A stretch of DNA of 60,813 nt. It comes from Candidatus Hadarchaeum sp. (GTDB taxonomy: Archaea > Hadarchaeota > Hadarchaeia > Hadarchaeales > Hadarchaeaceae). The notes under the pieces are model-generated. The model was given only the letters and a program-made list of their open reading frames with translations. It had not been told where the DNA came from and did no database searches. The position numbers and the translations under genes were made by a program. Shown piece by piece: positions 44,984-60,813 of the stretch. Where the stretch lies: the NCBI RefSeq assembly GCF_038871235.1, contig NZ_JAVZIN010000010.1:1-60813 (forward strand), given 5' to 3'. The first letter of the stretch is position 1, and each line of letters starts with the position of its first letter.

Positions 44984-45215
44984 GCGGCTCCCCCACATAT
45001 ACTTCTGTACCGACCAGCCGATTGAGTTCAGACTTTATCTCTGAGGCTGGTTTTATAGTGAAGTATGGTGATCTCACCGGCCCGAAGATGTCGACCACGT
45101 TGCCTATCCTCCTTTTTGAGGAGTCTAGGACGATCTGGCCCATTTTTGGGGCTTGGTCACCACGGGCAATTAGTCCCCTAGGTCTGATGTGCAGTATCTT
45201 GGCAGTTAGGACCAA
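44934..45215 (-). CDS. gar1: H/ACA RNP component Gar1/Naf1
   Basis: [15 protein letters not shown]; gar1-tfb adjacency is common in archaea. Confidence 0.85.
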
Positions 45216-45254
45216 AATTATCCCTCAAAAACCTTTTAAGTAGTCAAATTATCC

Positions 45255-45271
45255 TATATATAAACTTTTCG
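45255..45271 (-). promoter_or_regulatory. BRE + TATA box upstream of gar1-tfb
   Basis: Minus strand CGAAAAG-TTTATATATA about 40 nt before the gar1 start. Confidence 0.6.
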
Positions 45272-45293
45272 TAATGTTTTTATTTTGATTTTT

Positions 45294-45710
45294 TTACCCC
45301 ACGTAGCTGGGTCTTTCCCGGTCCTCCTTATGGGGTGGCTGCAGGCTGGGCATTGGTATCGGCGGCGGAATGTTCAAAGATCTTGAAACCACGGTGGCTT
45401 CGACCAGCGAGGTGTTGGTTATCGCCTGTAACAAGAGTTGCGGAGGAGGCAGTTGTTTTTTGTAATCTTCATAAATTTTTTCGACTTCCGCGGGTTCGGC
45501 CAGAATAAGTGCTTGCCCCTTGATGTTTATCTGGGCCAGTGGGGGGCTATAGACAATGGTGACAACAAATGGCGCCGCTAGCCTATCTTCTTTTCTCTCC
45601 AGCCCAATGATATTTACATTAGTTGAGATGTGAACGCCAGCCGGAGCTGGTTTTTCCTGCTCCCAGAACCTCTCCGCTGAAATGTAGTTGATGCTCACTC
45701 GGACTTGCAA
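45294..45710 (-). CDS. Conserved archaeal hypothetical protein
   Basis: ISAERFW...INIKGQA...LNIPPPIP pattern; clean ORF downstream of tiaS. Confidence 0.65.
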   Translation of the reverse strand: MQVRVSINYISAERFWEQEKPAPAGVHISTNVNIIGLERKEDRLAAPFVVTIVYSPPLAQINIKGQALILAEPAEVEKIYEDYKKQLPPPQLLLQAITNTSLVEATVVSRSLNIPPPIPMPSLQPPHKEDRERPSYVG

Positions 45711-45742
45711 TCACTTCACCAGTTTAAAAATTGCCTTTTTTA

Positions 45743-47041
45743 CTATAAATCACCGCTGTTTTTGCCAGCGATTTCTCTGATCAGGGGCTTTGCTAGGTGC
45801 CTGCGGGCGCGAGGAGGAACTTCAAACTTTCCGGCACCTATTGCCCTTTCCACTCTTATTGTTTTTGCTGAACTTGCCGGAAGCTTTGTTTTGCACCGTT
45901 TGCAGGAGTACCCTTTATTTTTACCCTCCGACTTCATCCTTTTGCCGCAGCTCGGGCACCTTGGATTTTCCTTCCTAAAAAGTGGGGCTGCTTCTAACAC
46001 CTCGACTTTTTCCAGATTTATCGTTAGGGGCAGCTCGGGTTTTTCCTTTATGCCGCCGTAGACTCTTAGCCGATCTCCAATGATAAATTTTCTTACTTTG
46101 TCGCGAAACTGTCGCGTCGGCTCATAGGCAGCGCAATCTATTTCCCCAGTTTCGTCCTTCAACCTGAAAATCACATGACCACCAGGGATGGTTCGTGGAG
46201 CTTTGGATACAACGCCTTCAACGATAACAGACCAGTTTGGCTTGGCGTCAGCTATTTTTACCTTTCTCAGATGCTCATCGGTGCCTTGGTTGGTTTTATA
46301 GATAATTATCTGTTCAATCGGTTCCAACGCCCTAACCATTTTGCTGGCTTTTTTCACTGCTTGTGGTGTTTCACCCCGGATCCCGTAAAGTATTGGACAT
46401 GGTGTATGTGGAGTGATCCTGATTTCACCCGTGCTTGGATCTAGATTATCAAACGTGCTTGGGTAGGTTTTCCTGTTCATTTCCTCAACGGAAGACCGGT
46501 CGATTCTTCTCGGCGTCCCACGATTTTCAGGTATTCGATAGGCAATTAGTTCAAATGTCCAGTCATTTTCAAGGGCGTTTCCGATGGCGGCCAGCGCCCC
46601 CACGATACCCCGACCGAGCTTGAACTTGTGGACTTCAGCGCCGACTCTTTTGGCTAGTTCTTCGGCCTCCTCAATAGTGACTACGTCCTGGATGACTTTT
46701 TTTGAGAAGAACTTCATTTCCGGCGCAATTCTACTTCCTTGGTAAAAGACGACTCCGGGGTTGGTGGTCTCTACATGTAGTTCGGCCAGTTCCTCCACCG
46801 TTCTGAGAACGATTTCTTTGATGGTGGGAATTTGGTCCCTTTTTGCCGATATGGTAAAAGCGATGGAGCAGTTGCCCCTTGTTTTTATTTTCCAGTTGGG
46901 GTTGAGCCTGATCAGCTTTGGGTAGCCCTTTAACCTGAAGCCGAGTTTTTGTAGGCGCCTGATGGCAACTGCACCAACGTAGGTCGTGCACATACCCTGT
47001 TTCGAGTCGGTGTCGTCAATGCCGATGTGAAGGAGCACCAT
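45743..47041 (-). CDS. tiaS: tRNA(Ile2) 2-agmatinylcytidine synthetase
   Basis: IGIDDTDS..GMCTT, KTRGN, TNQGTD, AAYEPT, C-terminal zinc ribbon, RRHLAKP. Confidence 0.93.
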   Translation of the reverse strand: MVLLHIGIDDTDSKQGMCTTYVGAVAIRRLQKLGFRLKGYPKLIRLNPNWKIKTRGNCSIAFTISAKRDQIPTIKEIVLRTVEELAELHVETTNPGVVFYQGSRIAPEMKFFSKKVIQDVVTIEEAEELAKRVGAEVHKFKLGRGIVGALAAIGNALENDWTFELIAYRIPENRGTPRRIDRSSVEEMNRKTYPSTFDNLDPSTGEIRITPHTPCPILYGIRGETPQAVKKASKMVRALEPIEQIIIYKTNQGTDEHLRKVKIADAKPNWSVIVEGVVSKAPRTIPGGHVIFRLKDETGEIDCAAYEPTRQFRDKVRKFIIGDRLRVYGGIKEKPELPLTINLEKVEVLEAAPLFRKENPRCPSCGKRMKSEGKNKGYSCKRCKTKLPASSAKTIRVERAIGAGKFEVPPRARRHLAKPLIREIAGKNSGDL

Positions 47042-47161
47042 TTTCCCACCATAATTGCTATTTATTATCAAATAGACTGTTTGGCCCCGATTAATCGAAT
47101 CGGTTTAATTTGTTCAGGAGGTAAAACCTTATTGACATCGTTGATAAGGGAATTTGGTAAC

Positions 47162-49012
47162 ATGCCGACCAATCCATGGGGACAGTTCAAAGGTGATGTG
47201 ATTCGGGCGCTGGGGGAAGCTATTTCTCGGCTAGGTTGGCAGGTATCAGCTCCGCTTGATGCCACGCTTGAGGAGCCGCCGGACCTAAAACTGGGTGACA
47301 TTGCGACTAGGGTTTGCTTCGAGCTGGCTAAGTCGTACCGCAGGCCTCCCGCGGAGCTAGCAGCAGAGTTGGGTGGGGAAATAAGGCCTGAGGGATTGGT
47401 CGAAAGGATAGAGGTCGCGGGTAATTATGTTAACTTTTTTGTTGACGTTTCACAGCTGGCCGAACTCACCCTGCAAAGCATTGAAAAGTATGACTGCAGC
47501 TATGGTTTCTCTGACGTCGGCCGGGGCAAGAAGGTGCTGATAGAGCACACCAGCGTGAACCCAACCAAGCCACTTCACATAGGTCATGGCAGAAACGCCG
47601 TTATCGGAGATACCATGGCAAGACTGTTGCGGGCGCTGGGTTATCAGGTCGAGGTTCACAACTATATAGATGACATGGGTAGGCAGGTTGCTGAAACTCT
47701 TTTAGCCTATCGTCTCATCAAGGAGAAACCCAAGGCCAAGTTCGATCACATGCTTGGGCTGATCTACTCTGACATGCACGGACGGATTGAACGAGAGCCA
47801 GGGCTTGAGGAGGAGGTGCGCAGAATACTGGCTCGGCTTGAGCAGGGGGCCGGCGTTGACCCCAAGCAGGCGAGGCGTCTTTCGGAGAAATGTGTAAAGG
47901 CTAACCTTGAAACCACCGATCGATTGGGTATAAGCTATGATGTGCTGGTTTGGGAAAGCGACTTGGTCAGGTCAGGAATTTTGAACGAGACCCTGCAGAG
48001 ACTAAAGGGCACCAAATACTTGGTAGAGGGAGCCGGGGAGTACTCTGGTGCCCTAGTGCTGAAGCTTTCCGACTTTGGCCTTGAGGATAAAGTGCTGGTT
48101 CGATCAGATGGAACGGCTGTCTACACAATGAGAGATATAGCCTACCAACTCTGGAAGTTCGGGAAAACCAAGGCTGGGTTGAAATTTAAGTTGCATTCCA
48201 AGCGCCCCGATGGGACCAAGACTTATACAACCTCTTTGCGCGGTAGAAAAAATACAAGGTTTGGTCGGGCGGATATGGTCATTAACGTGGTCGGTGCCGA
48301 GCAGAGATTTCCCCAGCAAGTAGTCTTTAATTCACTAAGGGCACTTGGTCTTGAGAAGGAGTATGAGAACTCTTACCATCTCGCTTACGAACACGTTTGG
48401 TTGCCAAGTGGAAGATTCTCCGGAAGAAAGGGCACATGGATTGGTTTTACCGTTGATGACGTCGTCGAGGAAGCGGTGGCGAGATCACGAGCGGTGGTCG
48501 AGGAACACGCCCCCAGCGCCAGTGAGAGTTTCAAGCGCCGGGCAGCTGAATTTGTCGGCGTGGGCGCGGTAAGATATTCTTTGATCAGCACCTCTCCGGA
48601 AAAAAGGATAACTTTCAAGTGGGAGGAGGCCCTTAGCTTTGAGAGGAATAGTGGCCCGGCAGTGCAGTATTCCCATGCTAGGGCTTGCAGCATCCTCCGC
48701 AAGGCCAAGAGCTTTGAATTTAAACCCGTTAATAGCGCTTTTAAGCTGCCACAGGAGCAAAAGCTGGTCAGGCTCCTAGCTAAATTTCCTGAGGTTATAT
48801 TGGAAGCTGGTATAAGAAGGCAGCCACATCTGCCCGCCTTGTATGCGGCGGAACTTGCCTTGGCATTTAATACTTTTTATGAGGTGGCACCGGTTATCGA
48901 TGCCGAAACCCCTGAACTGCGAAACGCCCGCCTGCGATTGGTCAATGGTGTCCGTGTGGTTCTCAGGAATGTTCTCGAGCTGATGGGAATAAAGGCGCCT
49001 GAAAGGATGTGA
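47162..49012 (+). CDS. argS: Arginine-tRNA ligase
   Basis: EHTSVNPTKPLHIGHGRN, RSDGT, FSGRKG, QYSHARA, ends APERM. Confidence 0.95.
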   Translation: MPTNPWGQFKGDVIRALGEAISRLGWQVSAPLDATLEEPPDLKLGDIATRVCFELAKSYRRPPAELAAELGGEIRPEGLVERIEVAGNYVNFFVDVSQLAELTLQSIEKYDCSYGFSDVGRGKKVLIEHTSVNPTKPLHIGHGRNAVIGDTMARLLRALGYQVEVHNYIDDMGRQVAETLLAYRLIKEKPKAKFDHMLGLIYSDMHGRIEREPGLEEEVRRILARLEQGAGVDPKQARRLSEKCVKANLETTDRLGISYDVLVWESDLVRSGILNETLQRLKGTKYLVEGAGEYSGALVLKLSDFGLEDKVLVRSDGTAVYTMRDIAYQLWKFGKTKAGLKFKLHSKRPDGTKTYTTSLRGRKNTRFGRADMVINVVGAEQRFPQQVVFNSLRALGLEKEYENSYHLAYEHVWLPSGRFSGRKGTWIGFTVDDVVEEAVARSRAVVEEHAPSASESFKRRAAEFVGVGAVRYSLISTSPEKRITFKWEEALSFERNSGPAVQYSHARACSILRKAKSFEFKPVNSAFKLPQEQKLVRLLAKFPEVILEAGIRRQPHLPALYAAELALAFNTFYEVAPVIDAETPELRNARLRLVNGVRVVLRNVLELMGIKAPERM

Positions 49013-49016
49013 AAGG

Positions 49017-49987
49017 TTAATCGGGTTTGATGAGCTCTCCCTTGAGATCACCAGTTTTCAGACGGTTGTACCATTCCTTAGTAAGTGGTTCCTTTTCGTG
49101 GAGCTCTTTGCGCCTCGCCTCCAGAAGTTCTGGTTCCAAGCCCAGTAGCTCCGAAGCTGTCAGAAGGCGGTGTCTTTTTTTCTCCGCTTCCCTGAAAACA
49201 GGACCGAGAAACTCCCGGTAATCAAGTGACCTTAACAGATGATGGTCAATGACGTTTAGCGGTACTTCTCTTACCATTTTCATCATGTTGCTCTTTGCCG
49301 ACTCTAAGCTGGGCCCGTCGATTTTGTAGCCGGCGAGATAAATGGGTGGCCCACCGACTATCACCACTTGAGGCCTTTCGCTCAGGATCATCTGGAGAGT
49401 TTCACTGTCGACGGGCCCCTGAACATCGGAGGCATGGACGAGCGTACATCCATGGGTTTTGACCGTTAGCATCAGCAGGTAGCCCAGCCCGGTTCCGGGG
49501 GAGCCGTGAGCCACCGGTCTGGAAAACTTTAGCACAGTTTGGCCGAAGGTGAATTTTTTTCCATCGGCGATTTTTATCTCCTTGGCTATTTTTGCGTTCA
49601 GCTTCTGAAAAATGTAGCCGCGCTTGCGCTGGCTGGCATTGATATCAGCGTTGATATCCTTTGCTAGGATGACTTTGCCGCGGTAGAGGTTTGCCGCGAT
49701 TTCAGGTGAACTCCAGATCCAGACCCAATCCTCGAAATTGGGAACATAATGGTCAAAGTGATAGTGGCTTATGGTGAGCAGTTCGGACTTTCGGGCTGCC
49801 TCTAAGATAGCAAGCCGAGACCGTGCTAAGGCCACGTATTCCCGTTCGTGCGGACTTAGGTGGAATCTCGGACCAAGGGCGGAACCGGGGTCGATGATCA
49901 TTTTCACATCGTCGGTTTCTACAAAAGTTGCCATGCCCCTTACACCGAGGCTTTCAAACGCCAGTGGGAGAACTCGGATTTCGCCAT
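49017..49987 (-). CDS. UPF0282-family metallo-beta-lactamase-fold protein; first codons appear frameshifted
   Basis: ESLGVRGMATFVET, ISHYHFDH, SDVQGP, DHHLLR; conserved N-terminus extends upstream of ATG 49934. Confidence 0.78.
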
Positions 49988-50121
49988 TACCTATGGGTAT
50001 GGGGTCTTTTATTTAACCACCCTGCTGCGATTCAACTTTAATTTCATCTAGTCGTCGAGGTTAATCTTTATTCTCTATTGAAATTTTAACGCTTAAATTC
50101 AATGGAACTAAAGGAATTATT

Positions 50122-50865
50122 ATGCCCACGCGCTTGAAGCATCTCAGCCGCCCAAAGCTGAAGCAGCCGGTCTTGGTGGCGGGTCTACCAGGCATAGCTA
50201 ATGTGGGTAAGCTTGCTCTCGAGTACTTGGTGCAAAAATTATCGGCGGAAAAGTTCTTGGAACTCTATTCAGATTATTTTCCCGAATGGGTGATTCAGGA
50301 GGAGGGCCGGGTTAGTCCCTTAAAGGTAGACTTTTTTCACTGCCGCCCCGAGGGAATGAAACAAGACCTGATTTTGGTAACCTCCGACGCCCAGGCGGCG
50401 ACTCCACTGGGACAATATGCGCTGACGGGAGAACTGCTGGATGTTGCCGTTCGACATGGAGTTAAGTTGGTTGGGACAATGGCTGCCTATGTGGTCTCAC
50501 CTGAAGAGAGACGCAGCTATGGGGTGGTCGGAGCGGCCTCGGATGTCGATCTGGCCAAGGCGCTGAGCGAAAGTGGAGTCAAGCTGTTGAACAGCGGCGT
50601 TATTGTGGGTATGAATGGGATGCTTCCGGTGATGGCAACCCGGCGAGGATTGAGGGGATTTTGCCTACTCGGTGTCACTGAGGGTGGGGTTCTGGACGCA
50701 GGTGCTTCAGCAGCGGTTCTGAGGTCGTTGGCCGCGGTGCTGAACTTTAAGTTGGAGCTAAAAGATTTAGAACAGCAGGCGAGGAAACTAGCCAAGCTGA
50801 TTCCACCGCCACCCGTTTCCGAGATAGGTGGTGTCGCTGAGGAAGAGCCCAGTTACATTCGTTGA
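50122..50865 (+). CDS. PAC2-family proteasome assembly chaperone
   Basis: GLPGIANVGKL, DAQA, IVGMNG, C-terminal SYIR. Confidence 0.85.
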   Translation: MPTRLKHLSRPKLKQPVLVAGLPGIANVGKLALEYLVQKLSAEKFLELYSDYFPEWVIQEEGRVSPLKVDFFHCRPEGMKQDLILVTSDAQAATPLGQYALTGELLDVAVRHGVKLVGTMAAYVVSPEERRSYGVVGAASDVDLAKALSESGVKLLNSGVIVGMNGMLPVMATRRGLRGFCLLGVTEGGVLDAGASAAVLRSLAAVLNFKLELKDLEQQARKLAKLIPPPPVSEIGGVAEEEPSYIR

Positions 50866-51957
50866 TTAAATTTCAGTAAAACTCCTCACCCTGTCAGCGT
50901 CTAGCTCTTTGACGATCTCGATGGTTAACTTGACCGCGTTTTCCACATCTTCCAAGCACAGGTAGCCCACATGGGTGTGGATGTGCCTAGTGGGAACGCT
51001 GATGACGGCGGTGGGGCATCCGGCTCTATCAAGATGTATGCTGCCCGCATCGGTGCCACCGCCCGTGGACTGCGAGAGCTGGAGTGGTATCTTCTTTCTC
51101 TCCGCTAGCTCAATGATGAAGTTCTTCAATGGTTGATTCGGGATCATTGACCTGTCGTAGGTGAGCAGGGAGGGCCCTTTTCCCAGCTTGGTTGGGGCTT
51201 GGTGCGGCTGGATTCCAGGCACATCCCCTGCGATATCAACCTCCAACACAATTCCCACGTCTGGGTCGACCACGTGAGCGGAGGTCTTGGCTCCTCTTAG
51301 ACCCACCTCCTCCTGCACGGTTGCGGCCGCATAAATGGTGTTGGGGTGTTTGATTCCTTGTTCCCTGATTCTTCTGACTGTCTCGGCCATCACAAAGACA
51401 CCGATCCTGTCGTCGAATCCCTTACCCGAGGCAAATTTACCATCCTTGAATAATGAGAAGGGAGACCAAGGAGTAACTGGGTCGCCAATCCTCACCCCCA
51501 TTTTAACTGCTTCATCCATGGAGCAGGCCCCAACGTCGATGTACATATCCTCCTTTTTCACCACCGCTTTCCTTTCCTCCTCAGTTAGAACATGGGGGGG
51601 CTTTGAGGAAATGACGCCAGGCAGGTCTCCTTTTTTCGTCCTGACGATTACCCGCTGTGAGAGCAGCACCTGATCCCACCAGCCGCCCAGCGGACCGAAC
51701 TTGAGAAAACCTGTTTTTTCATCAATTCCAGTGACCACAAAGCCGACTTCATCAAGGTGTCCTGCCATCAGAATCCGCGGTCGCTGTGATTTTCCCCTAG
51801 CCACAAAGATGATCGAGCCCAGCTTGTCGGAGATAATTTCGCTTGAGTAGGGCTTCAAATATTCTTTAACAATTTTTGCCGGTTCCGCCTCAAATCCAGA
51901 CGGACCGAAGGATTCCATTAACTCCTTCATGAATTTCATCGCTTTTTTATCGAACAT
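50866..51957 (-). CDS. M42 (TET-like) aminopeptidase
   Basis: GHLDEVG, GGWW, FDDRIG, QEEVGLRGA, GGTDAG, RHIH. Confidence 0.92.
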   Translation of the reverse strand: MFDKKAMKFMKELMESFGPSGFEAEPAKIVKEYLKPYSSEIISDKLGSIIFVARGKSQRPRILMAGHLDEVGFVVTGIDEKTGFLKFGPLGGWWDQVLLSQRVIVRTKKGDLPGVISSKPPHVLTEEERKAVVKKEDMYIDVGACSMDEAVKMGVRIGDPVTPWSPFSLFKDGKFASGKGFDDRIGVFVMAETVRRIREQGIKHPNTIYAAATVQEEVGLRGAKTSAHVVDPDVGIVLEVDIAGDVPGIQPHQAPTKLGKGPSLLTYDRSMIPNQPLKNFIIELAERKKIPLQLSQSTGGGTDAGSIHLDRAGCPTAVISVPTRHIHTHVGYLCLEDVENAVKLTIEIVKELDADRVRSFTEI

Positions 51958-52070
51958 GCTACTCCGTTTACCATTCTAGACTCTTTCATAAAAACTTGTC
52001 TTTTAAGCAACGGGGCCGGTGCTAGATAAAAATAAATAGTGGTTTTTTGATAGGTTAGGTAGTGTTTGTT

Positions 52071-54128
52071 ATGACTACGATTGGCGATAGCAGGGTTATC
52101 AAAACAGTTTGTCGGATCTGTTCTGGTGAATGTGGTTTGGATGTTTACGTCCATGACGGTAAAATTGTCAAGGTGGAGGGGATGAAGGAGCATCCGATTA
52201 ACCGGGGCGAAATTTGTCCCAAAGCGGAAGCAGCGATTGATTATGTTTATTCTCCAGATCGTCTCAAGTATCCTCTGAAGAGGGATGGCGATTCTTGGAA
52301 AAGAATTTCTTGGGATGAGGCGCTGACTACCATTGCCCAGGAGCTGACTAGAATTAAGAAGGAGTACGGGAGCAGGGCTCTGGCAGTCTATCTGGGGCAG
52401 GGGATAGATTATTATGAAAATAAGTGGTATGCGCGCAGGTTCTGTGATGTTTACGGTACTCCGGGCTATTACTCAGTCGACAGCATGTGTTATCGGGCTA
52501 GAGTGATAGCACACAGGCTGACATATGGCGCAATGTCCGTGGCAGATCAAGAGAATTCTAAGTGTATTTTGATGTGGGCTCGTAATGAGTACAACGCCAT
52601 CTTGCCTCGGGCGAAGAAAGCCCTCAAGGCATTAGAAAACGGTGCCAAATTGATCGTCGTGGATCCGGTTCGAACCTTTTTCGCAAAAAGGGCAGACATC
52701 CACCTGAGACCGAGGCCTGGAACCGACTGCGCGCTGGCCCTCGCCATGCTGAATATCATCATCTCCGAAGGCCTTTATGATAAAGAGTTTGTGGAAAGGT
52801 GGACGGTCGGTTTTGAAAAGTTGGCCGAACATGTGAAGAAGTACCCGCCTGAAAAGGTTGAGGAGATAACTTGGGTCAAAGCCGATGATATGGTTAAGGC
52901 GGCTAGACTCTATGCTTCAACTAAACCCGCCTGCATAAATCAGGGCAATTCCATAGATCTTCAGGCAAACGGAGTCCAAACCTCCCGTGCCCTTGCCATA
53001 ATGCAAGCGATAACTGGGAACCTTGATGTACCCGGTGGAAACATATACTCTCCGAGGTTGAGATTAACTAATCTGGGTTTTCCGAAAATGGTGAGTGAAA
53101 AGCCCTTCGGTGCCGATGAACATCCCATCCAGTACGAGCACACCCGAGAGGGTCAGGCAATGGTCCTGATTGAAAAAGTGATAAGCGGTGATCCCTACCA
53201 GATCAGGGCCATGATTGTTTCAGGGGGCAACCCCGCGCTTCAGTTGCCCAATTATAACAAAGTTAAGGCGGCCCTAGAAAAGCTTGACTTCCTCGTCGTG
53301 ATGGACGTTTTTATGACGGCCACAGCGGAATTCGCCGACATCGTGCTTCCGGCTGCCACATTTTTGGAGAAAACCGAATTACTCGACTTCGGTGCCGTGA
53401 TGGGAATTCCTTATGTTATGTTGAGAAAAAAAGTGGTGGAGCCCATTGGTGAAGCTTGGCCGGACTGGAAGTTTTGGTTTGAGCTGGGCAAGAGAATGGG
53501 TTACGGTGAATATTTCCCATGGAACGACGTTCGGGAAGCCATTGATGTTCTGTTAAAGCCAACAGGTTATTCAGCTAAGATTCTTGAGGAACTGCCCGGT
53601 GGCTTTTACTACGATTATCCTCGATATCGTAAGTATTTGGATGATGGCTTTTTGACCCCGTCTAAAAAGGTAGAGTTGTATTCTGAGACCCTTGAGAAGT
53701 ATGGTTATGATCCATTGCCCACTTATGTCGAGCCTAATGAGAGCCCGGTAAGTACTCCTGAGCTGGCTGAGGAATATCCGCTAATTTTGACTACCGGAGC
53801 GAGAGTTCTGGAGTATACTCACTCCCAGTTGAGAAATATACCTCAGTTGCGAGAGAAGGTTCCTCACCCCTCGGCTGAAATTCATCCAGAAACTGCAAAA
53901 AGATATGGCATCGCGGATGGTGAGATGATAGTGGTCAAGACAAAGAGAGGAAGTGTTAAGATAAAGGCAAAGGTCACAGAAGATATGCACCCCAGGGTTG
54001 TTCACGTTCAGCACGGATGGAAGGAGGCCAACGCCAACGTTTTAACTGATGAAGCGAACCGGGACCCAATCTCTGGATTTCCAGCGATTAAGTCCTTATT
54101 GTGCTCAATCGAGCGATTAGGCAGATGA
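52071..54128 (+). CDS. Mo/W-bisPGD oxidoreductase catalytic subunit (DMSO reductase superfamily), cytoplasmic
   Basis: CRICSGEC...CPKA [4Fe-4S] motif, DRLKYPL, PGTDCAL, ADIVLPA, HSQ, C-terminal molydop-binding domain; no Tat signal. Confidence 0.88.
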   Translation: MTTIGDSRVIKTVCRICSGECGLDVYVHDGKIVKVEGMKEHPINRGEICPKAEAAIDYVYSPDRLKYPLKRDGDSWKRISWDEALTTIAQELTRIKKEYGSRALAVYLGQGIDYYENKWYARRFCDVYGTPGYYSVDSMCYRARVIAHRLTYGAMSVADQENSKCILMWARNEYNAILPRAKKALKALENGAKLIVVDPVRTFFAKRADIHLRPRPGTDCALALAMLNIIISEGLYDKEFVERWTVGFEKLAEHVKKYPPEKVEEITWVKADDMVKAARLYASTKPACINQGNSIDLQANGVQTSRALAIMQAITGNLDVPGGNIYSPRLRLTNLGFPKMVSEKPFGADEHPIQYEHTREGQAMVLIEKVISGDPYQIRAMIVSGGNPALQLPNYNKVKAALEKLDFLVVMDVFMTATAEFADIVLPAATFLEKTELLDFGAVMGIPYVMLRKKVVEPIGEAWPDWKFWFELGKRMGYGEYFPWNDVREAIDVLLKPTGYSAKILEELPGGFYYDYPRYRKYLDDGFLTPSKKVELYSETLEKYGYDPLPTYVEPNESPVSTPELAEEYPLILTTGARVLEYTHSQLRNIPQLREKVPHPSAEIHPETAKRYGIADGEMIVVKTKRGSVKIKAKVTEDMHPRVVHVQHGWKEANANVLTDEANRDPISGFPAIKSLLCSIERLGR

Positions 54129-54221
54129 AGTTTTGACCCCGAATGGCCGATAAAAAATATAGGGATACAACTGAAAATTCAAAAAAAGAAAAAAGGTAAT
54201 GATTTAGCCAGTTGTCAAGGT

Positions 54222-55532
54222 TTATGAAACTATCTGAGGTTCTGGCCACCAAGTTATCTGATCCAACCCAAAGTCCCAAATGCCAATCTGCGCCCATTTG
54301 TATGTACCATCTGATTTTACAACTTGGAATAATCCGTAGTTACTGCCCTCCCTGTCACCGGCTTCATCAAAAGGCGACCAGCCCGTGACGCCGGTGTAGT
54401 TGGAGACAACCCAGGGTAACTGGGCTTTAACTGCGTCGGCGTCGTACATTTTTGCGCTGTTCATTGCCAATGCCAGAATCCAGACAGCATCATAGCCATT
54501 TAGCCCATAGATATCGGCTTCCCTGCCCAGTTTAGCTTTTATCTGCGCTTGAACCTTGTATAATTTCGGGTTCGGAGTTGGGATTAAGCAACCGTAGACG
54601 CCTTTTTCTGATATTGTTTCAGCTGTATCGGTTTCCAATGCCCAGTCCGTTAAAACTAGACCGCCGACACCCACCCAGTGTACTCCCCAACTTGTCGGGT
54701 TATATGCTTTTAGCGTGGAAAAGATCGCCTTGCCCTCTTCAAAGCAGTGTATGTAAACACTTACTTTGTCGGCTCCATAAGTAGATATGGCGGTGTTGAC
54801 TCTGGAAGCAAAGGCAGCGGCTTCAGAGCTGAATTCAGTGGCGTTGGGGTCGTATCTTACTCCCTCATCCACAGTAATTCCTAGCTTGGAACAGTAATCC
54901 CTTACATAGGACATCATTGAGTCTCCAAAAGTATCGCCGCGCCACATCGGTACTAAGTATTTCGTTCCTAAATCATGGGCGATTCGCGCAAAGCATTTGC
55001 CCTCAATTTTTGTAGTCGGCATGAGTCGATAGGTATAATCGTCTGGTATAGCTAAATCTGCCGCGTTCGATCCATAAGCAAGGAGAAGAATTTTGTTGGA
55101 ATTGGAATAAGATATAGATGCCCTTAGGTCTGCGCTAGTTCCCCAACCGCCAACGATGGTAATGCCTCTAGCGTGTAAGCTCTTTAGCTTCTCCAGGGCA
55201 ATGTCAGGCTTTGTTTCTGAGTCTTCATAAACTATGCTCATTGTCCAGCCAGCGTTGGTTTCGCTTAAATATTGGTTTACCTCGCTTAGCGCGACATCCG
55301 CAGCTGTTCTGGCCGCTTCTCCCCAGAAGGCGTTGCCACCGGTTAGACCGTCCACCCAGCCTATCTTCACTTCACCGGAGAGACCTGCGGGTGCACCTGG
55401 AGTTGCGGTAACGGTTCTGGTTGTCGTTACCGTCGCCGTGGCCCCTGGAGCAGTAGTCACCTCTGCGGGTTTGGCTACCCAACCGGCACCGATCCCAACA
55501 ATAAGACCTACTACGAGCGCTATAGTGGCCAT
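54222..55532 (-). CDS. Membrane-anchored LivJ-like solute-binding protein
   Basis: N-terminal TM, Thr-rich linker, KIG...LTG, EDSETKP, YDAVW, GVTG...GDR. Confidence 0.82.
   Translation of the reverse strand: MATIALVVGLIVGIGAGWVAKPAEVTTAPGATATVTTTRTVTATPGAPAGLSGEVKIGWVDGLTGGNAFWGEAARTAADVALSEVNQYLSETNAGWTMSIVYEDSETKPDIALEKLKSLHARGITIVGGWGTSADLRASISYSNSNKILLLAYGSNAADLAIPDDYTYRLMPTTKIEGKCFARIAHDLGTKYLVPMWRGDTFGDSMMSYVRDYCSKLGITVDEGVRYDPNATEFSSEAAAFASRVNTAISTYGADKVSVYIHCFEEGKAIFSTLKAYNPTSWGVHWVGVGGLVLTDWALETDTAETISEKGVYGCLIPTPNPKLYKVQAQIKAKLGREADIYGLNGYDAVWILALAMNSAKMYDADAVKAQLPWVVSNYTGVTGWSPFDEAGDREGSNYGLFQVVKSDGTYKWAQIGIWDFGLDQITWWPEPQIVS
55317..55519 (+). repeat. Direct repeat copy 1 (5' end of SBP gene 1)
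   Basis: 203 nt with 4 mismatches to 60611-60813 by manual comparison. Confidence 0.9.
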
Positions 55533-55889
55533 TACTAGCGGTTTCGTATTATCTACCCCCCCTGTTGTTTGTTTTTTGGCGTATTAAATGTTTTGTTCTC
55601 TAAGGGCAAAAATTAGATGTTAAAAATTACTTCTATTCCTCTAGCCACCCAGCCGAGCGGTAAGACGTGATTTAAAGGTTCCTCACCAATAGAACAGCTT
55701 CGTCAGGCCACCTGAATCACGCTCGAGCCTGAGGTGTCTCAAAATTCGCTTCCTAGAAAAATTGTGCATGAAGTTGTACAGTTAAATTAGTCTCTTAACT
55801 CTAGCTTCTTGAGACCACGCATGGAGCAGACCTTCGGCGAATTTGTTATGTATATAAATTGTTGTATCTTAAGAAAAAAGGGGGGGCGT

Positions 55890-56531
55890 TTGTTTAGACC
55901 TGTAGATAAGATAAGAGAAGCGATGTCAACATTTGATCAAGAGAAGTTAATCGAGGTCGCAAAGGGAAGCTTGAAAAATGGCTTTCACCCGTTGGAGATT
56001 ATAAATGCGATCACTGTTGTTCTTCGGGAAATGGGTGAAAAGTATGAGAAAGGTGAAATTTTTATCCCGCATTTAGTGACAGCCGGAGAGGCTGCAAAGT
56101 ATGTGATTTCGGAGCTTCTAGAACCATTGCTTAAGGATAAGGCGGAGAGAAAGACCCTAGGACGCGTTGTTATCGGCACCGTAGCCGGTGATATTCATGA
56201 TATAGGTAAAAGCCTGGTTGCGTTGATGCTTTTCTCCGCGGGATTTGAGGTAATCGACTTGGGAAAAGATGTCCCAATCGAGGAGTTTGTTAATGCTGTT
56301 AAAAAATATAGCCCAAGCATTGTCGGCATGTCTGCCTTGATAACCACAACGCGACCTATGCAAAGGGAAGTAATCGAAGCCCTTAAGAAACAGAACTTAA
56401 GGCACAAAGTGATGGTAATGGTGGGTGGTGCGCCAGTTTCGGCTGAGTGGGCTGAGGAAATAGGCGCGGATGGTTATGCTGAAAATGCCATTGAGGCCGT
56501 TAATGTTGCTAAAAGACTTATGGGGGGTTAA
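55890..56531 (+). CDS. Methyltransferase cognate corrinoid protein (MtmC/MttC-like)
   Basis: GDIHDIGK cobalamin DxHxxG motif, GMSAL, VGGAP, GADGYAENA; TTG start after G-rich RBS. Confidence 0.92.
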   Translation: MFRPVDKIREAMSTFDQEKLIEVAKGSLKNGFHPLEIINAITVVLREMGEKYEKGEIFIPHLVTAGEAAKYVISELLEPLLKDKAERKTLGRVVIGTVAGDIHDIGKSLVALMLFSAGFEVIDLGKDVPIEEFVNAVKKYSPSIVGMSALITTTRPMQREVIEALKKQNLRHKVMVMVGGAPVSAEWAEEIGADGYAENAIEAVNVAKRLMGG

Positions 56532-56534
56532 AAA

Positions 56535-57986
56535 ATGAGTTTAAAAAGCGGACAGTTGCGATTTCTCACCAGCGATGAGCTTTACGAAATTCATATGGCT
56601 TCTTTGGAAATACTTGGACAAGTTGGTGTGAAGTTCCTATCACAGAAGGCGCTGCAGATACTGGAAGGGGCTGGAGCGCAAGTTGATTTTAAGGAAGAAG
56701 TGGCTAGGATTCCGGAATATCTTGTAAAGGAGGCAATAAGAAAAGCACCGAGCAGTTGCACGGTGTATGGGAGAGACTTTAAGCACAAAATGAAGCTGGG
56801 AGATGATCAAGTTTACTTCGGCATGGCTGGCTGGCTGCCTTATGTTTTAGATCTGGAAACTGGCAAGCGCAGGGAGGGTACTTTAGCCGATGTAGAACAG
56901 TTTTTTAAACTTGGTGATTATTCAAAAAACATACATTTTTTGGATTGGGCTGTTTGGCCAAAGGACATACCAGAGTCTGTGGTTCATGCCTATGGTTTAT
57001 TTATGGGATTTAAAAACACTACAAAACCTCTGGATGGATATATTCACGGTGAGTCACCTGCTGAAGATAACATAAGAATGGCTTCTATCGTTGCTGGAGG
57101 TGAGGAAGAACTCAGGAAAAGACCGTTGCTTTTGAGCATAGAAAACCCCACCAGCCCATTACAACATTCTAAAGAAATGATAGAGGGGCTTATGGTGTAT
57201 ACTAAATATGGGCAGCCCCTCGTCATCGCTCCAGAGGCTCAATCAGGAGCTACAGCACCTGTCTCGTTAGCGGGGCTTTTGGTGCAGCAAAATGTTGAGA
57301 TTTTAAGTGGGATTGTTTTGGCTGAGCTTGTTAACCCCAGTACTCCGATGATTTACGGGACCGTTTCAACCATCGCAGATATGAAAACCGGCAACATTGC
57401 CCTCGGAGCGGTAGAAGCTGGATTAATTAATGCGGCCACAGCCCAATTGGCGCATTACTATAATCTCCCTAGCCGAGGAACAGCTGGTACCACAGACTCA
57501 AAAATACCAGATGTTCAAGCAGGTTTGGAAAAGTCGATGACATTAATTATGGCAGCCTTGTCAGGAATTGACTTTATCTACTCGTTTGCAGGCACACTAG
57601 AGTCAACGCTAACAATGAGTTACGAACAATTTCTCATCGATGACGAATTGGCTGGGATGGTGGCTCGAGCTGTTAGAGGCGTTAGAGTTGACGATGAGAT
57701 GCTTGCCGTTGATGTGATAAAGAAGGTAGGGCCTGGTCACCATTACCTAACTCAAAAACACACCATAGAAAACTTTATGAAAGAACATTACATCCCCAAG
57801 ATTATTAATAGGGAAAAAAGGGAAACTTGGGAAAAATTAGGTGCGAAGGACCTCAGAGAGATAGCCCGCAATGAAGTCAAAAAGATTTTGAAAGAGCACC
57901 AACCAGAGCCTCTAGATTCAGATGTGGAAATGGAATTAAAGAAAATCCTGGAGGAAATAGAAAAAAGATCACGTGGTAATATCTGA
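56535..57986 (+). CDS. MttB-superfamily methyltransferase, non-pyrrolysine
   Basis: SPLQ, GATAPVSLAG, DMKTG, DSKIPDVQAGLEK, VGPGHHYL; no in-frame TAG. Confidence 0.88.
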   Translation: MSLKSGQLRFLTSDELYEIHMASLEILGQVGVKFLSQKALQILEGAGAQVDFKEEVARIPEYLVKEAIRKAPSSCTVYGRDFKHKMKLGDDQVYFGMAGWLPYVLDLETGKRREGTLADVEQFFKLGDYSKNIHFLDWAVWPKDIPESVVHAYGLFMGFKNTTKPLDGYIHGESPAEDNIRMASIVAGGEEELRKRPLLLSIENPTSPLQHSKEMIEGLMVYTKYGQPLVIAPEAQSGATAPVSLAGLLVQQNVEILSGIVLAELVNPSTPMIYGTVSTIADMKTGNIALGAVEAGLINAATAQLAHYYNLPSRGTAGTTDSKIPDVQAGLEKSMTLIMAALSGIDFIYSFAGTLESTLTMSYEQFLIDDELAGMVARAVRGVRVDDEMLAVDVIKKVGPGHHYLTQKHTIENFMKEHYIPKIINREKRETWEKLGAKDLREIARNEVKKILKEHQPEPLDSDVEMELKKILEEIEKRSRGNI

Positions 57987-58107
57987 TATTTAAGATATTT
58001 TTTCCCTTGATAAGCAATGGATTCGTGGAATTTGTTTTGATTGCATCTATTTTTTTAGAATAATTAACCTTTTATTTCGAAGTTTCAGTAGTGATACGGA
58101 GGAAAAT

Positions 58108-59493
58108 ATGCCGGTTCCACCTTGGAGAATAAATGAGGTTCTGGAAAGGGCTGAAACCGGACCCATTTGCATGGAAAGGGATTTTGACACAAAGATTCTC
58201 TTCACCAATCTTAAGCGGGTGATAAAAGAACATGAGATTAAGTTTGATCCGGAAACAATTATACCTACGGACGAAACGCTTGCCGACGATGTTTGGGAAG
58301 CAGCTCTAGATCTTTATCTTACTGTTGGGACGCTTTGTATAAACACCCACAGGCGGATTCTATTTACTGAGCGGGAGATCAAGGAAGCCATGAAGGCCTT
58401 CCCAGGCGAGATAACGGTTGGCTATGGTAAAGATGCGCGAAAGATGTCCCACCGAAAAGTTGAGGATAGGAAGAGGCCTTTCTGTTTGTTTAGCCCCGAT
58501 ATCACCTACGATGAGGACCTCTTTGTCCCGGTGGCCATGGCCTATCTTCAGGAACCTCTTGCTGATGGTGTTTGTGGCCCGTTGCTGGATGAAATCGAGG
58601 GCACGGATATCAAGGCCAACGCCCCCTCCGATATCCGAGGTTCGGTCGCTCATGCGCTGATGTTCCGCGAGGCGGCCAGAAGGGTGGGCAGACCAGGCAT
58701 CTTTTTACAAGGAGTTGGCACGGCTGAGGCCGATACTGCACAGATTGCTGTGAGCAACCAAGAGTGGGGAGAAAGGTTAACCGACGGTAGATTTGTTCCC
58801 ACAATAACTGAGCTGAAAATAGACTATTCTGCTCTAAACCGGATGATCCATTATCATCAATATGGCTGTTTTGTTGGATGTCTCTTTGGACCACTTTACG
58901 GGGGCTACTGTGGCGGAGCCGAGGGCACGGCCGTGGTCGGCGTGGCATCACATATCCAAGCAATGATGGTCGCTCAAGCACATTACTCGAACTATTTCCC
59001 AATGCATCTGATGCACTCTTTCAACACCTCTCGGGAATTACTCTGGGCGATCAGCGTCACTTACCAGACGCTGGCGAAGCATACCCCGTTTATCTCAACC
59101 TCAAATGGTTTTGCCGCTGCTGGCCCAGCAACGCCGATGGTGCTCTACGAAGCGGCAGCGCACGGTTTGACTAGCTCGGTTTCAGGCGGAAATCTATGGG
59201 AGATGGCTGTGGCAAGAAACAAGCACAAAAACCGCGCCACTCCAATGGAGGGCAGAATGGCCTGTGAGATAGGCTGCGCAGCCGCGGATCAGGGATTCAA
59301 GCGAGAAGATGCCAATGATATTGTGAAGGAAATAGTCAAGAAGTACGAGGCCGACCTGACCAACGCCCCGTTGGGTAAGACTTTCCGTGAGTGCTACGAT
59401 GTCAGAAAAGTGAGACCTAAAGAGGACTATGTGAAACTATTTGAAGAAATTAAAAAAGAATTAATTCAACTTGGGGTGCCCTTCCTTTACTGA
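58108..59493 (+). CDS. MtmB-family (monomethylamine:corrinoid methyltransferase-like) protein, non-pyrrolysine
   Basis: RAETGP, IIPTD..LAD, NTHRRI, GRPG, ELKID, GGYCGGAEG, GKTFRECYD; no in-frame TAG. Confidence 0.85.
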   Translation: MPVPPWRINEVLERAETGPICMERDFDTKILFTNLKRVIKEHEIKFDPETIIPTDETLADDVWEAALDLYLTVGTLCINTHRRILFTEREIKEAMKAFPGEITVGYGKDARKMSHRKVEDRKRPFCLFSPDITYDEDLFVPVAMAYLQEPLADGVCGPLLDEIEGTDIKANAPSDIRGSVAHALMFREAARRVGRPGIFLQGVGTAEADTAQIAVSNQEWGERLTDGRFVPTITELKIDYSALNRMIHYHQYGCFVGCLFGPLYGGYCGGAEGTAVVGVASHIQAMMVAQAHYSNYFPMHLMHSFNTSRELLWAISVTYQTLAKHTPFISTSNGFAAAGPATPMVLYEAAAHGLTSSVSGGNLWEMAVARNKHKNRATPMEGRMACEIGCAAADQGFKREDANDIVKEIVKKYEADLTNAPLGKTFRECYDVRKVRPKEDYVKLFEEIKKELIQLGVPFLY

Positions 59494-59509
59494 GCACCTG
59501 TTTTAGCCT

Positions 59510-60813
59510 TCAGTAGACCACTACAGGCTCTGGTAACCACGAAATTTCTTCGGTGCCGAAGTCCCACATGCCGACTTGGACCCACTTCCACTCGCCACCT
59601 ATCTGCATTACCTTGTAGAGTCCAAAGTTACGCCCTGACCTGTCGCCGTACTCGTTCAGCGGTGACCAGCCTCCGACTCCCTGGTAGACATCGAAGACCA
59701 TAGGTAGCTGAGCCCTGACAGCATCGGGATCGTATTTATCCGCGGCCATGAGCGCCAGCGCCAGAGTCCAAACGCAATCGTAACCGTTAAGTCCATAAAG
59801 GTCTGCTGTTCTCCCCAGTCGCTTCTGCACCTCAGCCTGTATCTGCTGCATCTTTCCGCTTGGAGTTGGCATTTTTGCTGGGAAGATGCAGTCCGTCGTT
59901 GAAACCATTTCCGCAATGGTCGTGGAGCCTACCACCCAGTCACAAAGGCTTGGCCCGTCGTTTGTCAACCACTTGATTCCCCAAGCCGCAGGGTTGTATG
60001 CTGCCAGCGCTTCATAGATTGCTTTGCCCTCCTCAAAGCAGACGATGAACCAGCCTACCTTATTCGCCCCATATCTGGATTTGGCGCTGCTAACGGCTGA
60101 GTTAAGCGCGCTGGCTTCGGCGCTGAACTCCGTCGCGTCAGGGTTGTATCTTATTCCTTCATCTACCGAAATTCCAGCACCTGCAGCAGCGGTTCTGGTT
60201 GCATTAACTACGCTGTCACCCCAAGCGTCACCTCTCCAAAGTGGAATCAGATAGGTAACGCCCAGATACTTTGCGAGGCTGATTAGCATTTTTCCTTCCT
60301 GAGCACTGGTCGGCATTAGTCGGTATACGTAGTCGTTAGCCACGGCTAAGTCGATAGCAGTAGATCCGTAGGATAGAAGAAGGATTTTGTTAGCGTTGGC
60401 ATATGACATGGAGGCTCTGAGGTCTCCACTGGTTCCCCAGCCGCTCACGATGGTAATACCTCTAGCGTGTAAGCTCTTCAGCTTCTCTAAGGCAATGTCA
60501 GGCTTTGTTTCTGAATCCTCGACTACTAAGGACATTGTCCAGCCAGCGTTTGTATCCTTTAAGTGCTTGTTTACTTCCTCAAGAGCTATCTCCGCGGTGG
60601 TCATGGCCTGTTCTCCCCAGAAGGCGTTGCCGCCCGTTAGACCGTCTACCCAGCCTATCTTCACTTCACCGGAGAGACCTGCGGGCGCACCTGGAGTTGC
60701 GGTAACGGTTCTGGTTGTCGTTACCGTCGCCGTGGCCCCTGGAGCAGTAGTCACCTCTGCGGGTTTGGCTACCCAACCGGCACCGATCCCAACAATAAGA
60801 CCTACTACGAGCG
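59510..60813 (-). CDS. Second LivJ-like solute-binding protein (5' end runs off the window)
   Basis: Paralog of 54222-55532; reading frame open to the window edge. Confidence 0.82.
   Translation of the reverse strand, partial: LVVGLIVGIGAGWVAKPAEVTTAPGATATVTTTRTVTATPGAPAGLSGEVKIGWVDGLTGGNAFWGEQAMTTAEIALEEVNKHLKDTNAGWTMSLVVEDSETKPDIALEKLKSLHARGITIVSGWGTSGDLRASMSYANANKILLLSYGSTAIDLAVANDYVYRLMPTSAQEGKMLISLAKYLGVTYLIPLWRGDAWGDSVVNATRTAAAGAGISVDEGIRYNPDATEFSAEASALNSAVSSAKSRYGANKVGWFIVCFEEGKAIYEALAAYNPAAWGIKWLTNDGPSLCDWVVGSTTIAEMVSTTDCIFPAKMPTPSGKMQQIQAEVQKRLGRTADLYGLNGYDCVWTLALALMAADKYDPDAVRAQLPMVFDVYQGVGGWSPLNEYGDRSGRNFGLYKVMQIGGEWKWVQVGMWDFGTEEISWLPEPVVVY
60611..60813 (+). repeat. Direct repeat copy 2 (5' end of SBP gene 2; truncated by window end)
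   Basis: Near-identical to 55317-55519. Confidence 0.9.

Follow-up and report, generated by a model that had tools for sequence, protein, structure and literature searches.

Pyrrolysine-free MttB-like and MtmB-like methyltransferase genes beside LivJ-fold binding proteins in Candidatus Hadarchaeum, read as two juxtaposed N-demethylation modules

Known demethylation systems and the Hadarchaeum locus

The locus described here lies at the end of a 60,813-nt contig from the genome of a hot-spring archaeon, a Candidatus Hadarchaeum (NZ_JAVZIN010000010.1, positions 1 to 60,813, referred to as the window), where a pyrrolysine-free MttB-like and a pyrrolysine-free MtmB-like methyltransferase gene are found together with genes encoding a corrinoid methyl carrier protein (Corr), two LivJ-fold solute-binding proteins (SBP1 and SBP2) and an oxidoreductase (MoOx) of the type carrying molybdenum or tungsten (Mo/W) bound to bis(pyranopterin guanine dinucleotide) (bisPGD). 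The closest described counterpart of the MttB-like gene is found in the MtgB/MtgC system of Desulfitobacterium hafniense (2qne/9yce), in which a pyrrolysine-free TIM-barrel first methyltransferase (MT1) of the MttB superfamily is encoded beside its cognate corrinoid protein. This arrangement is shared and the carboxylate-binding R312 of MtgB is kept, whereas the host here is an archaeon, three of the four glycine betaine contacts are replaced, SBP1 and MoOx are linked to the system, and the tetrahydrofolate (THF)-type acceptor pathway was not found in the genome.

The MtmB-like gene belongs to the same family as that of the MtqB/MtqC system of Methanococcoides methylutens Q3c. According to the accessible text of PMC13044021, MtqB is a pyrrolysine-free MtmB acting with a corrinoid protein and an MtaA/MtbA-type second methyltransferase (MT2), was described in 2026 and is the only pyrrolysine-free MtmB homologue with a demonstrated function, while the tree of that paper holds about a thousand such sequences. 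MtqB serves methanogenesis via coenzyme M (CoM) and methyl-coenzyme M reductase (MCR), whereas McrA was found in none of the eight genomes of the Hadarchaeum genus and in one of 46 genomes of the family; unlike in the MtqB system, the MtmB-like gene has no directly upstream corrinoid gene, and the binding protein with which it is paired is of the amino-acid type. MtmB of Methanosarcina barkeri (1l2q/1nth) belongs to the same fold family and aligns end to end, but has Pyl202 where the Hadarchaeum protein has Gln201, and no pyrrolysine machinery was found in the genome studied here. Non-methanogenic methylotrophy has been proposed for Brockarchaeota and Freyarchaeia/Atabeyarchaeia, which are likewise MCR-free uncultured archaea with MtaB, pyrrolysine-free MttB homologues and corrinoid proteins; in the accessible text of PMC8065059 and PMC11291895 the methyl group is routed to THF or tetrahydromethanopterin (H4MPT), whereas the markers of those routes were not found here. 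An MtaA-type MT2, reported in the same texts as missing in Brockarchaeota, is present here, and the MtmB family is expanded (7 copies).

The initial annotation had presented the locus as an undescribed methylotrophic module, which is too broad, since pyrrolysine-free MttB and MtmB enzymes are already known kinds and MtqB was described in 2026 (PMC13044021, accessible text). Among the listed openly searchable papers on methyltransferases of Hadarchaeota, Hadarchaeum or Hadesarchaea, including the accessible text of PMC6783470 and PMC11291895, these loci are not described; subscription papers (e.g., the 2016 Hadesarchaea genome) and supplements were outside this scope. Relative to the known systems, the locus differs in the substrate-site residues, the dedicated anchored LivJ-fold receptors, the recurrent Mo/W neighbour and the fact that no recognisable methyl sink was found.

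The arrangement favoured here, with modest confidence, is that of two separate corrinoid-dependent N-demethylation modules for amino-acid-like quaternary amines, juxtaposed by local rearrangement and followed by an MtaA-type step. Module A comprises SBP1, Corr and the MttB-like enzyme, with MoOx as a persistent neighbour that may be functional, and module B comprises the MtmB-like enzyme and SBP2.

Gene order in the genus and beyond

The window is the complete contig C10 of genome G000 (16 contigs, 1,205,095 bp, 94.75% complete, 0.88% contaminated), which was compared with the congeners G033, G034, G035, G036, G037, G038 and G039, giving eight genomes of the genus; contigs within a genome are labelled C, and compared loci or contigs are labelled L. 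Genes were identified with Pfam profiles, NCBIfam models and phmmer alignment to solved structures. Six genes occupy 52062-60813 in the order MoOx, SBP1 (reverse strand), Corr, MttB-like, MtmB-like and SBP2 (reverse strand), and the gene calls and Pfam matches agree with the order and strands given in the initial annotation.

Adjacency of the MttB-like and MtmB-like genes was observed only in G000 and G034 among the congeners, the 98% identical G034 having the same order of MttB-like end, MtmB-like and SBP2. G033 (about 85% nucleotide identity) is colinear over 45118-52225 and again over 58062-60813, and the missing 5,836 bp comprise most of MoOx, SBP1, Corr and the MttB-like gene, while the MtmB-like gene and SBP2 remain. 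Since the first 164 nt of MoOx, and no more of it, survive in G033, a deletion in that genome is the simplest account. In G039, the MttB-like gene (78%, inverted), MoOx (84%) and SBP1 (79%) are located at the same chromosomal site next to an M42 peptidase gene; no adjacent corrinoid gene is present, and orthologues of the MtmB-like gene and SBP2 were not found in that genome. In G036, contig C9 (L113) carries MoOx, Corr, the MttB-like gene, a MoOx paralogue split by an insertion sequence (IS) and SBP1, and the 2.7-kb contig C78, whose first 114 nt repeat a C9 sequence, carries the MtmB-like gene and SBP2. The latter pair is thus kept in G033, G034 and G036, and the gene sets of the congeners indicate that MoOx, SBP1, (Corr) and MttB-like on the one hand and MtmB-like and SBP2 on the other travel independently.

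Outside the genus, all 13 closest MtmB-like orthologues (64-71% identity; mostly from Bathyarchaeia, with one from Heimdallarchaeota, one from Thermoproteota and one in a bacterial-labelled record) have a corrinoid gene directly upstream, and none of their 13 loci holds a match to the MttB-like gene or to SBP1 or SBP2. An MttB-like gene within 8 kb was found in 7 of the 72 MtmB-centred loci outside Hadarchaeum. The synteny search in related archaea, which the initial annotation had put forward as a check, therefore showed that the MttB-like/MtmB-like pair is not co-conserved, an outcome that the annotation had itself named as refuting its proposal. Its proposal of one corrinoid carrier shared by two enzyme families in a stepwise demethylation is not borne out, since G033, G036 and G039 separate the pair and the 13 outside orthologues have their own corrinoid gene.

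Transposase-like genes (HTH_32, DDE_Tnp_1, DDE_Tnp_IS240 and Transposase_20) surround the Corr/MttB-like/SBP locus in G036 contig C9 and in L115. The locus is a rearrangement hot spot, and the transposases probably explain the differing gene orders of the congeners.

MoOx (52062-54128, forward strand; GTG start, 688 aa, first ATG at 52071) contains Molybdop_Fe4S4 (from residue 11), Molybdopterin and Molydop_binding domains and is cytoplasmic. Formate dehydrogenase alpha subunits need a (Se)Cys-His pair at the metal site; MoOx aligns a Cys followed by Tyr and scores 419.9 bits against the Fdh-alpha model TIGR01591, below the cut-off of 666.25, and was rejected as a formate dehydrogenase. The best solved relative, acetylene hydratase of Pelobacter acetylenicus (2e7z, 356 bits), is likewise cytoplasmic with an N-terminal 4Fe-4S domain and an aligned Cys metal ligand. 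In that enzyme, Asp13, next to the second cluster Cys, is catalytic, but MoOx has Ser at this position (CQSCD in 2e7z vs CRICS), and this assignment was rejected as well.

Of the alternatives, a functional role of MoOx within module A, in which it would act on the substrate or product of the MttB-like enzyme or on its methyl acceptor, is the least improbable, but it is regarded as tentative and rather unlikely. MoOx, SBP1 and the MttB-like gene stay together in G000, G036 and G039 (MoOx orthologues 87% identical in G036 and 84% in G039) despite the MttB-like inversion in G039 and the SBP1 move in G036, but these three cases share ancestry and one chromosomal site. The second, IS-split paralogue in G036 also lies next to the MttB-like gene, whereas the G000 paralogue on C6 sits among amidohydrolases. 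On the metagenome contig L116, an 80% identical MttB-like orthologue lies 6 kb from a 43% identical MoOx homologue with a Fer4 partner, and in the Desulfobacterales loci L050 and L054, MttB-like, Corr, MtmB-like and Fer4_11 genes and MoOx (35-37% identity) occur within 10 kb; however, homologues as distant as these (35-43% identity) may be other enzymes, nothing in the chemistry connects MoOx with the MttB-like enzyme, L115 (83% identical MttB-like orthologue) has no MoOx nearby, and only 2 of the 72 MtmB-centred loci outside Hadarchaeum have a MoOx match. The C6 paralogue (G000:C6:55847-64978, L121; 38.5% identical) has a Fer4_11 partner and is accompanied by five amidohydrolase genes, a RidA-like gene, DUF2284 and AOR, and the cluster is predicted to be of the amide or heterocycle type.

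A single operon, in which one carrier would serve both enzymes in the successive demethylation of one compound and feed the H4MPT/Wood-Ljungdahl route, is judged very unlikely. Corr, MttB-like and MtmB-like are encoded on the same strand in that order, also in G034, and the window shows a single corrinoid gene; against this stand the lack of co-conservation in G033, G036 and G039 and the own corrinoid genes of all 13 outside orthologues. The junction of MttB-like, MtmB-like and SBP2 is bridged by DNA contigs from two runs of one study (57748-60677 and 57752-58818, zero differences), so it is not an assembly artefact; one of the two runs may be the source sample. The two methyltransferase genes are nevertheless separated by a 121-nt spacer (57987-58107) with T6 and T7 tracts. 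About 31 nt ahead of the start codon of the MtmB-like gene it also contains an A/T box, (C/T)TTTTATTT, which keeps this distance in all four genomes with the gene (G000, G033, G034 and G036), although the DNA upstream differs in G033 and G036. The DNA lost in G033 extends to 58061, immediately before the box. The spacer likely represents a terminator followed by a separate promoter for the MtmB-like gene. Finally, known pyrrolysine-free enzymes act on quaternary amines, and the tertiary amines left behind are poorer methyl donors, which also counts against successive demethylation by one operon. As for the methyl route, the sister species G035, G037 and G038 carry MtrH and Ftr, but the searches of G000 yielded no MtrH, Mch, Ftr or CdhD, and those of the eight genomes yielded no MTHFR or FTHFS; at 94.75% completeness such absences are strong hints and not proof.

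The two methyltransferases and their binding proteins

Relative to their family profiles, the two methyltransferase frames are full length, and neither contains an internal stop. Thr319 (ACC) of the MttB-like protein aligns with the pyrrolysine of MttB (X in 7xcl), and Gln201 (CAA, codon at 58708) of the MtmB-like protein aligns with Pyl202 of M. barkeri MtmB (X in 1l2q), so the absence of amber codons reported in the initial annotation was confirmed at the sites themselves. The search for pyl genes that it had suggested returned no PylS above the cut-off in G000 (best match 39.7 bits vs 178) and no CUA-anticodon tRNA among the 22 tRNAs found by aragorn; since this tRNA set is incomplete, the absence of tRNA-Pyl rests mainly on the missing PylS. 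TAG is an ordinary stop in this genome, because it terminates 298 of the 1263 called genes. The MttB-like protein falls outside the pyrrolysine-type trimethylamine MttB class, with 504.7 bits against the equivalog model TIGR02369 (cut-off 525) and no in-frame TAG, and the MtmB-like protein falls outside pyrrolysine-dependent MtmB, with CAA at the site and no PylS above the cut-off in the genome.

A different situation was observed in two congeners. A PylS C-terminal domain above the cut-off (246 bits vs 178) is encoded in G037 (C6:24676-28168, L123) and G038 (C22:3355-9158, L122). At a distance of 1.5-3.7 kb from it are MtmB genes with a single in-frame TAG (codon 195), which falls exactly on the pyrrolysine site in the alignment. 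By these sequence features, pyrrolysine-using and pyrrolysine-free MtmB genes are predicted to coexist within one Hadarchaeota genus, because the PylS domain and the site-matching TAG occur together in G037 and G038.

The MttB-like protein (56535-57986, forward strand) is a member of the MttB superfamily, its residues 7-471 covering positions 30-491 of 500 of PF06253 (MTTB) at 426.4 bits (cut-off 25). An identity as archaeal MtgB, with Corr as its MtgC, is considered highly improbable. D. hafniense MtgB is the best solved relative (9yce/2qne, 359.6 bits, E 2.4e-106), but of the glycine-betaine-binding residues Y97, F356, H348 and R312 given in the accessible text of PMC13080624, only one is kept in the phmmer alignment to 9yce_A (chain numbering equal to that of the paper minus 2): Y97 corresponds to Gly99 (with Trp100 adjacent), H348 to Ser350, F356 to Thr358 and R312 to Arg314. 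The same four residues are fixed in all four MttB-like orthologues at 75-82% identity. Because three of the four contacts are replaced, the motif argues that the protein is not an MtgB. Corr scores 184 bits with one MtgC model and 168 bits with the other, far under their cut-offs of 370 and 310, and the linked binding protein is of the LivJ type and not of the betaine type. R312 is reported as a conserved residue of those members whose substrates are acidic quaternary amines (PMC13080624, accessible text), so the retained Arg314 points to a substrate bearing a carboxylate.

Corr (55809-56531, forward strand) contains B12-binding_2 and B12-binding domains (Pfam) and a DxHxxG motif (DIHDIG at residue 128), and lies 3 nt upstream of the MttB-like gene. 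It scores 209 bits with MtbC and 205.8 bits with TIGR02370, just under the cut-off of 215.3, and the substrate-specific models are far below theirs. Its identity is 52-53% to corrinoid proteins beside MttB-like genes and 37-51% to those upstream of MtmB-like orthologues (60% over one 60-residue fragment), and Corr is predicted to be the cognate carrier of the MttB-like enzyme. A start at TTG 55890, which gives 213 aa as in the orthologues and is preceded by a G-rich stretch, is more likely than the called start at 55809. The A/T-rich divergent intergenic region then extends over 55533-55889 and probably holds the promoters of both SBP1 and Corr.

A second MttB-like gene of G000 (C3:114604-118488, L018), 50% identical to that of the window, adjoins an ornithine cyclodeaminase/mu-crystallin gene and a transporter gene of the major facilitator superfamily (MFS), a neighbourhood that would fit a proline-derived betaine.

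The MtmB-like protein (58108-59493, forward strand) is a member of the MtmB family, with residues 8-456 covering positions 3-449 of 450 of PF05369 (349.9 bits, cut-off 25) and residues 12-459 aligned with 13-458 of 1l2q (230 bits). The motif RVGRPGIFLQ(G/S)VGTA was present in 11 of 30 aligned MtmB homologues, and Lys occupies the pyrrolysine site in 4 more, whereas the residue at that site is Ala, Val, Thr or Trp in the G000 paralogues, a difference that fits different substrates. In a FastTree tree of the 30 sequences, the protein clusters with Bathyarchaeia/Asgard orthologues and not with the G000 paralogues, which places it in a putative Gln/Lys-site clade common to Bathyarchaeia and Asgard archaea. 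A paralogous MtmB-like gene (C3:58512) forms a pair with a corrinoid gene at G000:C3:53537-61988 (L017), flanked by two SSF symporters, an Fe-alcohol dehydrogenase, an aldehyde:ferredoxin oxidoreductase and a ferredoxin, and such neighbours would fit a choline-like amino alcohol. That the MtmB-like enzyme of the window works like MtqB on tetramethylammonium or choline is just as improbable as the MtgB assignment: it shares the Pfam family and the lack of pyrrolysine with MtqB, which is active on both compounds, and has the above paralogue in a context suiting choline, but the binding protein paired with it is of the amino-acid type, the orthologues of the enzyme lie beside aminotransferases and polar-amino-acid ATP-binding cassette (ABC) systems (L043 and L044), and most pyrrolysine-free MtmBs fall outside the MtqB clade with 'unknown function' (PMC13044021, accessible text).

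SBP1 (54222-55532, reverse strand; Peripla_BP_6 97 bits, ANF_receptor 93 bits) and SBP2 (59510-60813, called 59510-60811, reverse strand and thus convergent with the MtmB-like gene, 5' end cut by the contig end; Peripla_BP_6 97.8 bits) both match Peripla_BP_6 and ANF_receptor and are 64% identical overall. In SBP1, an N-terminal hydrophobic helix is followed by a Thr/Pro-rich linker, a build typical of archaeal binding proteins anchored at the cell surface, and anchor and linker are identical in SBP2 over the comparable residues. In G036 and G039, SBP1 has its orthologues within 2.5-3.5 kb of the MttB-like gene. The AlphaFold2 model of SBP1 (60-sequence alignment; predicted local distance difference test 90.2, predicted template modelling score 0.85) shows a Venus-flytrap fold, and its top Foldseek matches are binders of leucine, gamma-aminobutyric acid, L-pyroglutamate, aromatic acids and alanine at 11-19% identity, with template modelling scores up to 0.85 normalised to the target. 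A sequence search against solved structures gave no match at E <= 1e-5, and the E. coli LivJ model gave 30.5 bits only. The model would thus give the ligand class only, in line with the amino-acid-type LivJ fold first assigned to both proteins, which the Peripla_BP_6 matches also support.

Also in agreement with the initial annotation, none of the 60 called genes of the window encodes a URO-D protein (MtaA/MtbA-type methyltransferase) or an ABC permease, and no LivHMGF permease or ATPase gene adjoins the binding protein genes; this absence covers the contig, which stops inside SBP2. The sole transporter-like pieces are two MFS_1 fragments within 42055-43352 on the same strand (42055-42354, 99 aa; 42753-43352, 199 aa), which are probably one broken transporter gene. 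Elsewhere in G000, a Liv-type permease/ATPase set at C3:1387-6159 has no binding-protein gene within the readable 13.6 kb and is the obvious candidate for the partner permease. The same C3 locus holds an MtmB-like paralogue, two aminotransferases, a 2-hydroxyacid dehydrogenase, a 2-oxoacid:ferredoxin oxidoreductase and an ADP-forming acyl-CoA synthetase, showing what the demethylated products would feed; class I/II aminotransferases lie beside orthologues or paralogues in L043, L044, L054, L116 and this locus.

SBP1 and SBP2 share a 505-nt repeat at 83% identity, which probably caused the contig break at SBP2, and their common anchor and linker explain the presence of a repeat where the contig ends. 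Joining the end of C10 to the start of C3, where an MtmB-like gene precedes the Liv permease locus, was considered and neither shown nor excluded. G033 reads through SBP2 into a Corr and MtmB-like pair that matches G000 C9 (92% nucleotide identity, vs 75% for the C3 start), and the matching ends of the G033 contigs C110 and C123 are only 69% alike over 216 nt.

Methyl transfer in the genome and the proposed mechanism

A total of 11 MT1 genes were found in G000, i.e., 7 MtmB-like (one a fragment at a contig end), 3 MttB-like and 1 MtaB, along with 6 stand-alone corrinoid genes and an MtaA::MtaC fusion. MT2 candidates are C1:32234-33316 (280 bits vs the PRK06252 cut-off of 244) and the C6 MtaA::MtaC fusion (315 bits); a third URO-D gene is divergent. 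A RamA/AcsV-like activase is encoded at C4:6326-8284 (538 bits with the AcsV model, cut-off 800; PF14574 333 bits). MT1, corrinoid protein, MT2 and activase are therefore all encoded at the genome level, MT2 and activase outside the window. The genome search for ramA, mtaA and mcr that had been proposed thus found ramA-like and mtaA-like genes outside the window and no McrA in G000. The suggestion that the methyl groups feed H4MPT/Wood-Ljungdahl metabolism is not supported here, given the missing MtrH, Mch, Ftr, CdhD, MTHFR and FTHFS described above. The single Pterin_bind match was rejected as a methyl-THF methyltransferase and is dihydropteroate synthase (198.9 bits vs a cut-off of 162.6). 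ComA was found in none of the eight genomes of the genus, a result of little weight, as the Methanosarcina control was also without ComA.

The distribution of the H4MPT markers divides the genus. Ftr and MtrH are carried by G035, G037 and G038 and by none of the other five genomes (G000, G033, G034, G036 and G039). MtmB-like matches number 22 in G037 and at least 25 in G038, and 3-6 in each of the five genomes without Ftr and MtrH; on G035 contig C56, MtrH lies 4.4 kb from an MtmB-like gene. The H4MPT route may hold for the G035/G037/G038 group.

For G000, the two-module arrangement would operate as follows. Each surface-anchored LivJ-fold protein would bind an N-methylated amino-acid-like compound, most likely a quaternary amine, carrying a carboxylate in the case of module A, and would pass it to a Liv-type ABC permease encoded elsewhere, with C3:1387-6159 as the candidate. 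The MT1 enzyme would transfer one methyl group to Co(I) of a corrinoid protein, that of the MtmB-like enzyme being a presumed partner, and an MtaA-type MT2 (C1:32234-33316 or the C6 fusion) would hand the methyl group on to an acceptor. The RamA/AcsV-like activase (C4:6326-8284) would repair oxidised corrinoid, and the demethylated product may enter amino-acid fermentation via aminotransferase, 2-oxoacid:ferredoxin oxidoreductase and ADP-forming acyl-CoA synthetase.

A weak hint that the locus is expressed comes from the contigs of one run registered as a metatranscriptome, which match the MttB-like gene at 56881-57116 (0 differences), the MtmB-like gene at 58436-58639 (2 differences) and the SBP genes (about 95% alike). 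Stretches of the region that lack coverage in the RNA-library run X5 and the DNA run X3 are of no weight.

Several points weigh against the two-module arrangement. The genomes that define the modules are all close kin, and the shared gene sets may reflect ancestry and IS-driven shuffling and not selection. The corrinoid gene nearest to the MtmB-like gene of G000 is Corr, upstream of the MttB-like gene, and none of the four Hadarchaeum genomes with the MtmB-like gene has a corrinoid gene directly upstream of it, so carrier sharing is conceivable in this genome. The terminator/promoter assignment of the spacer derives from sequence alone, the partner permease is a guess, with the sequence beyond 60813 not in the contig, and no ligand is readable from the SBP1 model, at only 11-19% identity to solved binders. 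The RNA evidence consists of assembled contigs of one run without strand or transcript boundaries, in which DNA carry-over is possible.

A further proposal, speculative and quite unlikely, concerns this lineage as one in which searches for MCR, the MtrH/H4MPT markers, CODH/ACS and the folate methyl branch gave nothing. Its pyrrolysine-free MtmB- and MttB-type enzymes, each with its own surface-anchored LivJ-fold receptor, would remove methyl groups from imported amino-acid betaines and so free fermentable amino acids. The MtaA-type enzymes would dispose of the methyl group on an acceptor other than CoM (e.g., sulfide or a small thiol), with methanethiol-type products, and the acetylene-hydratase-like MoOx would take part. 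If true, methyl removal would be an unlocking of substrate rather than methylotrophy, with a new methyl sink.

With two separate modules, the apparent sharing of one carrier by two enzyme families would be a species-level juxtaposition and not a conserved pathway. The genome itself poses a puzzle, having 11 MT1 genes, MT2 genes and an activase, yet no known methyl route was found. The locus offers two experimentally tractable pairs of an enzyme and a dedicated binding protein, with the MtmB-like clade shared with Bathyarchaeia and Asgard archaea, and screening the soluble parts of SBP1 and SBP2 for ligands could name the substrates.

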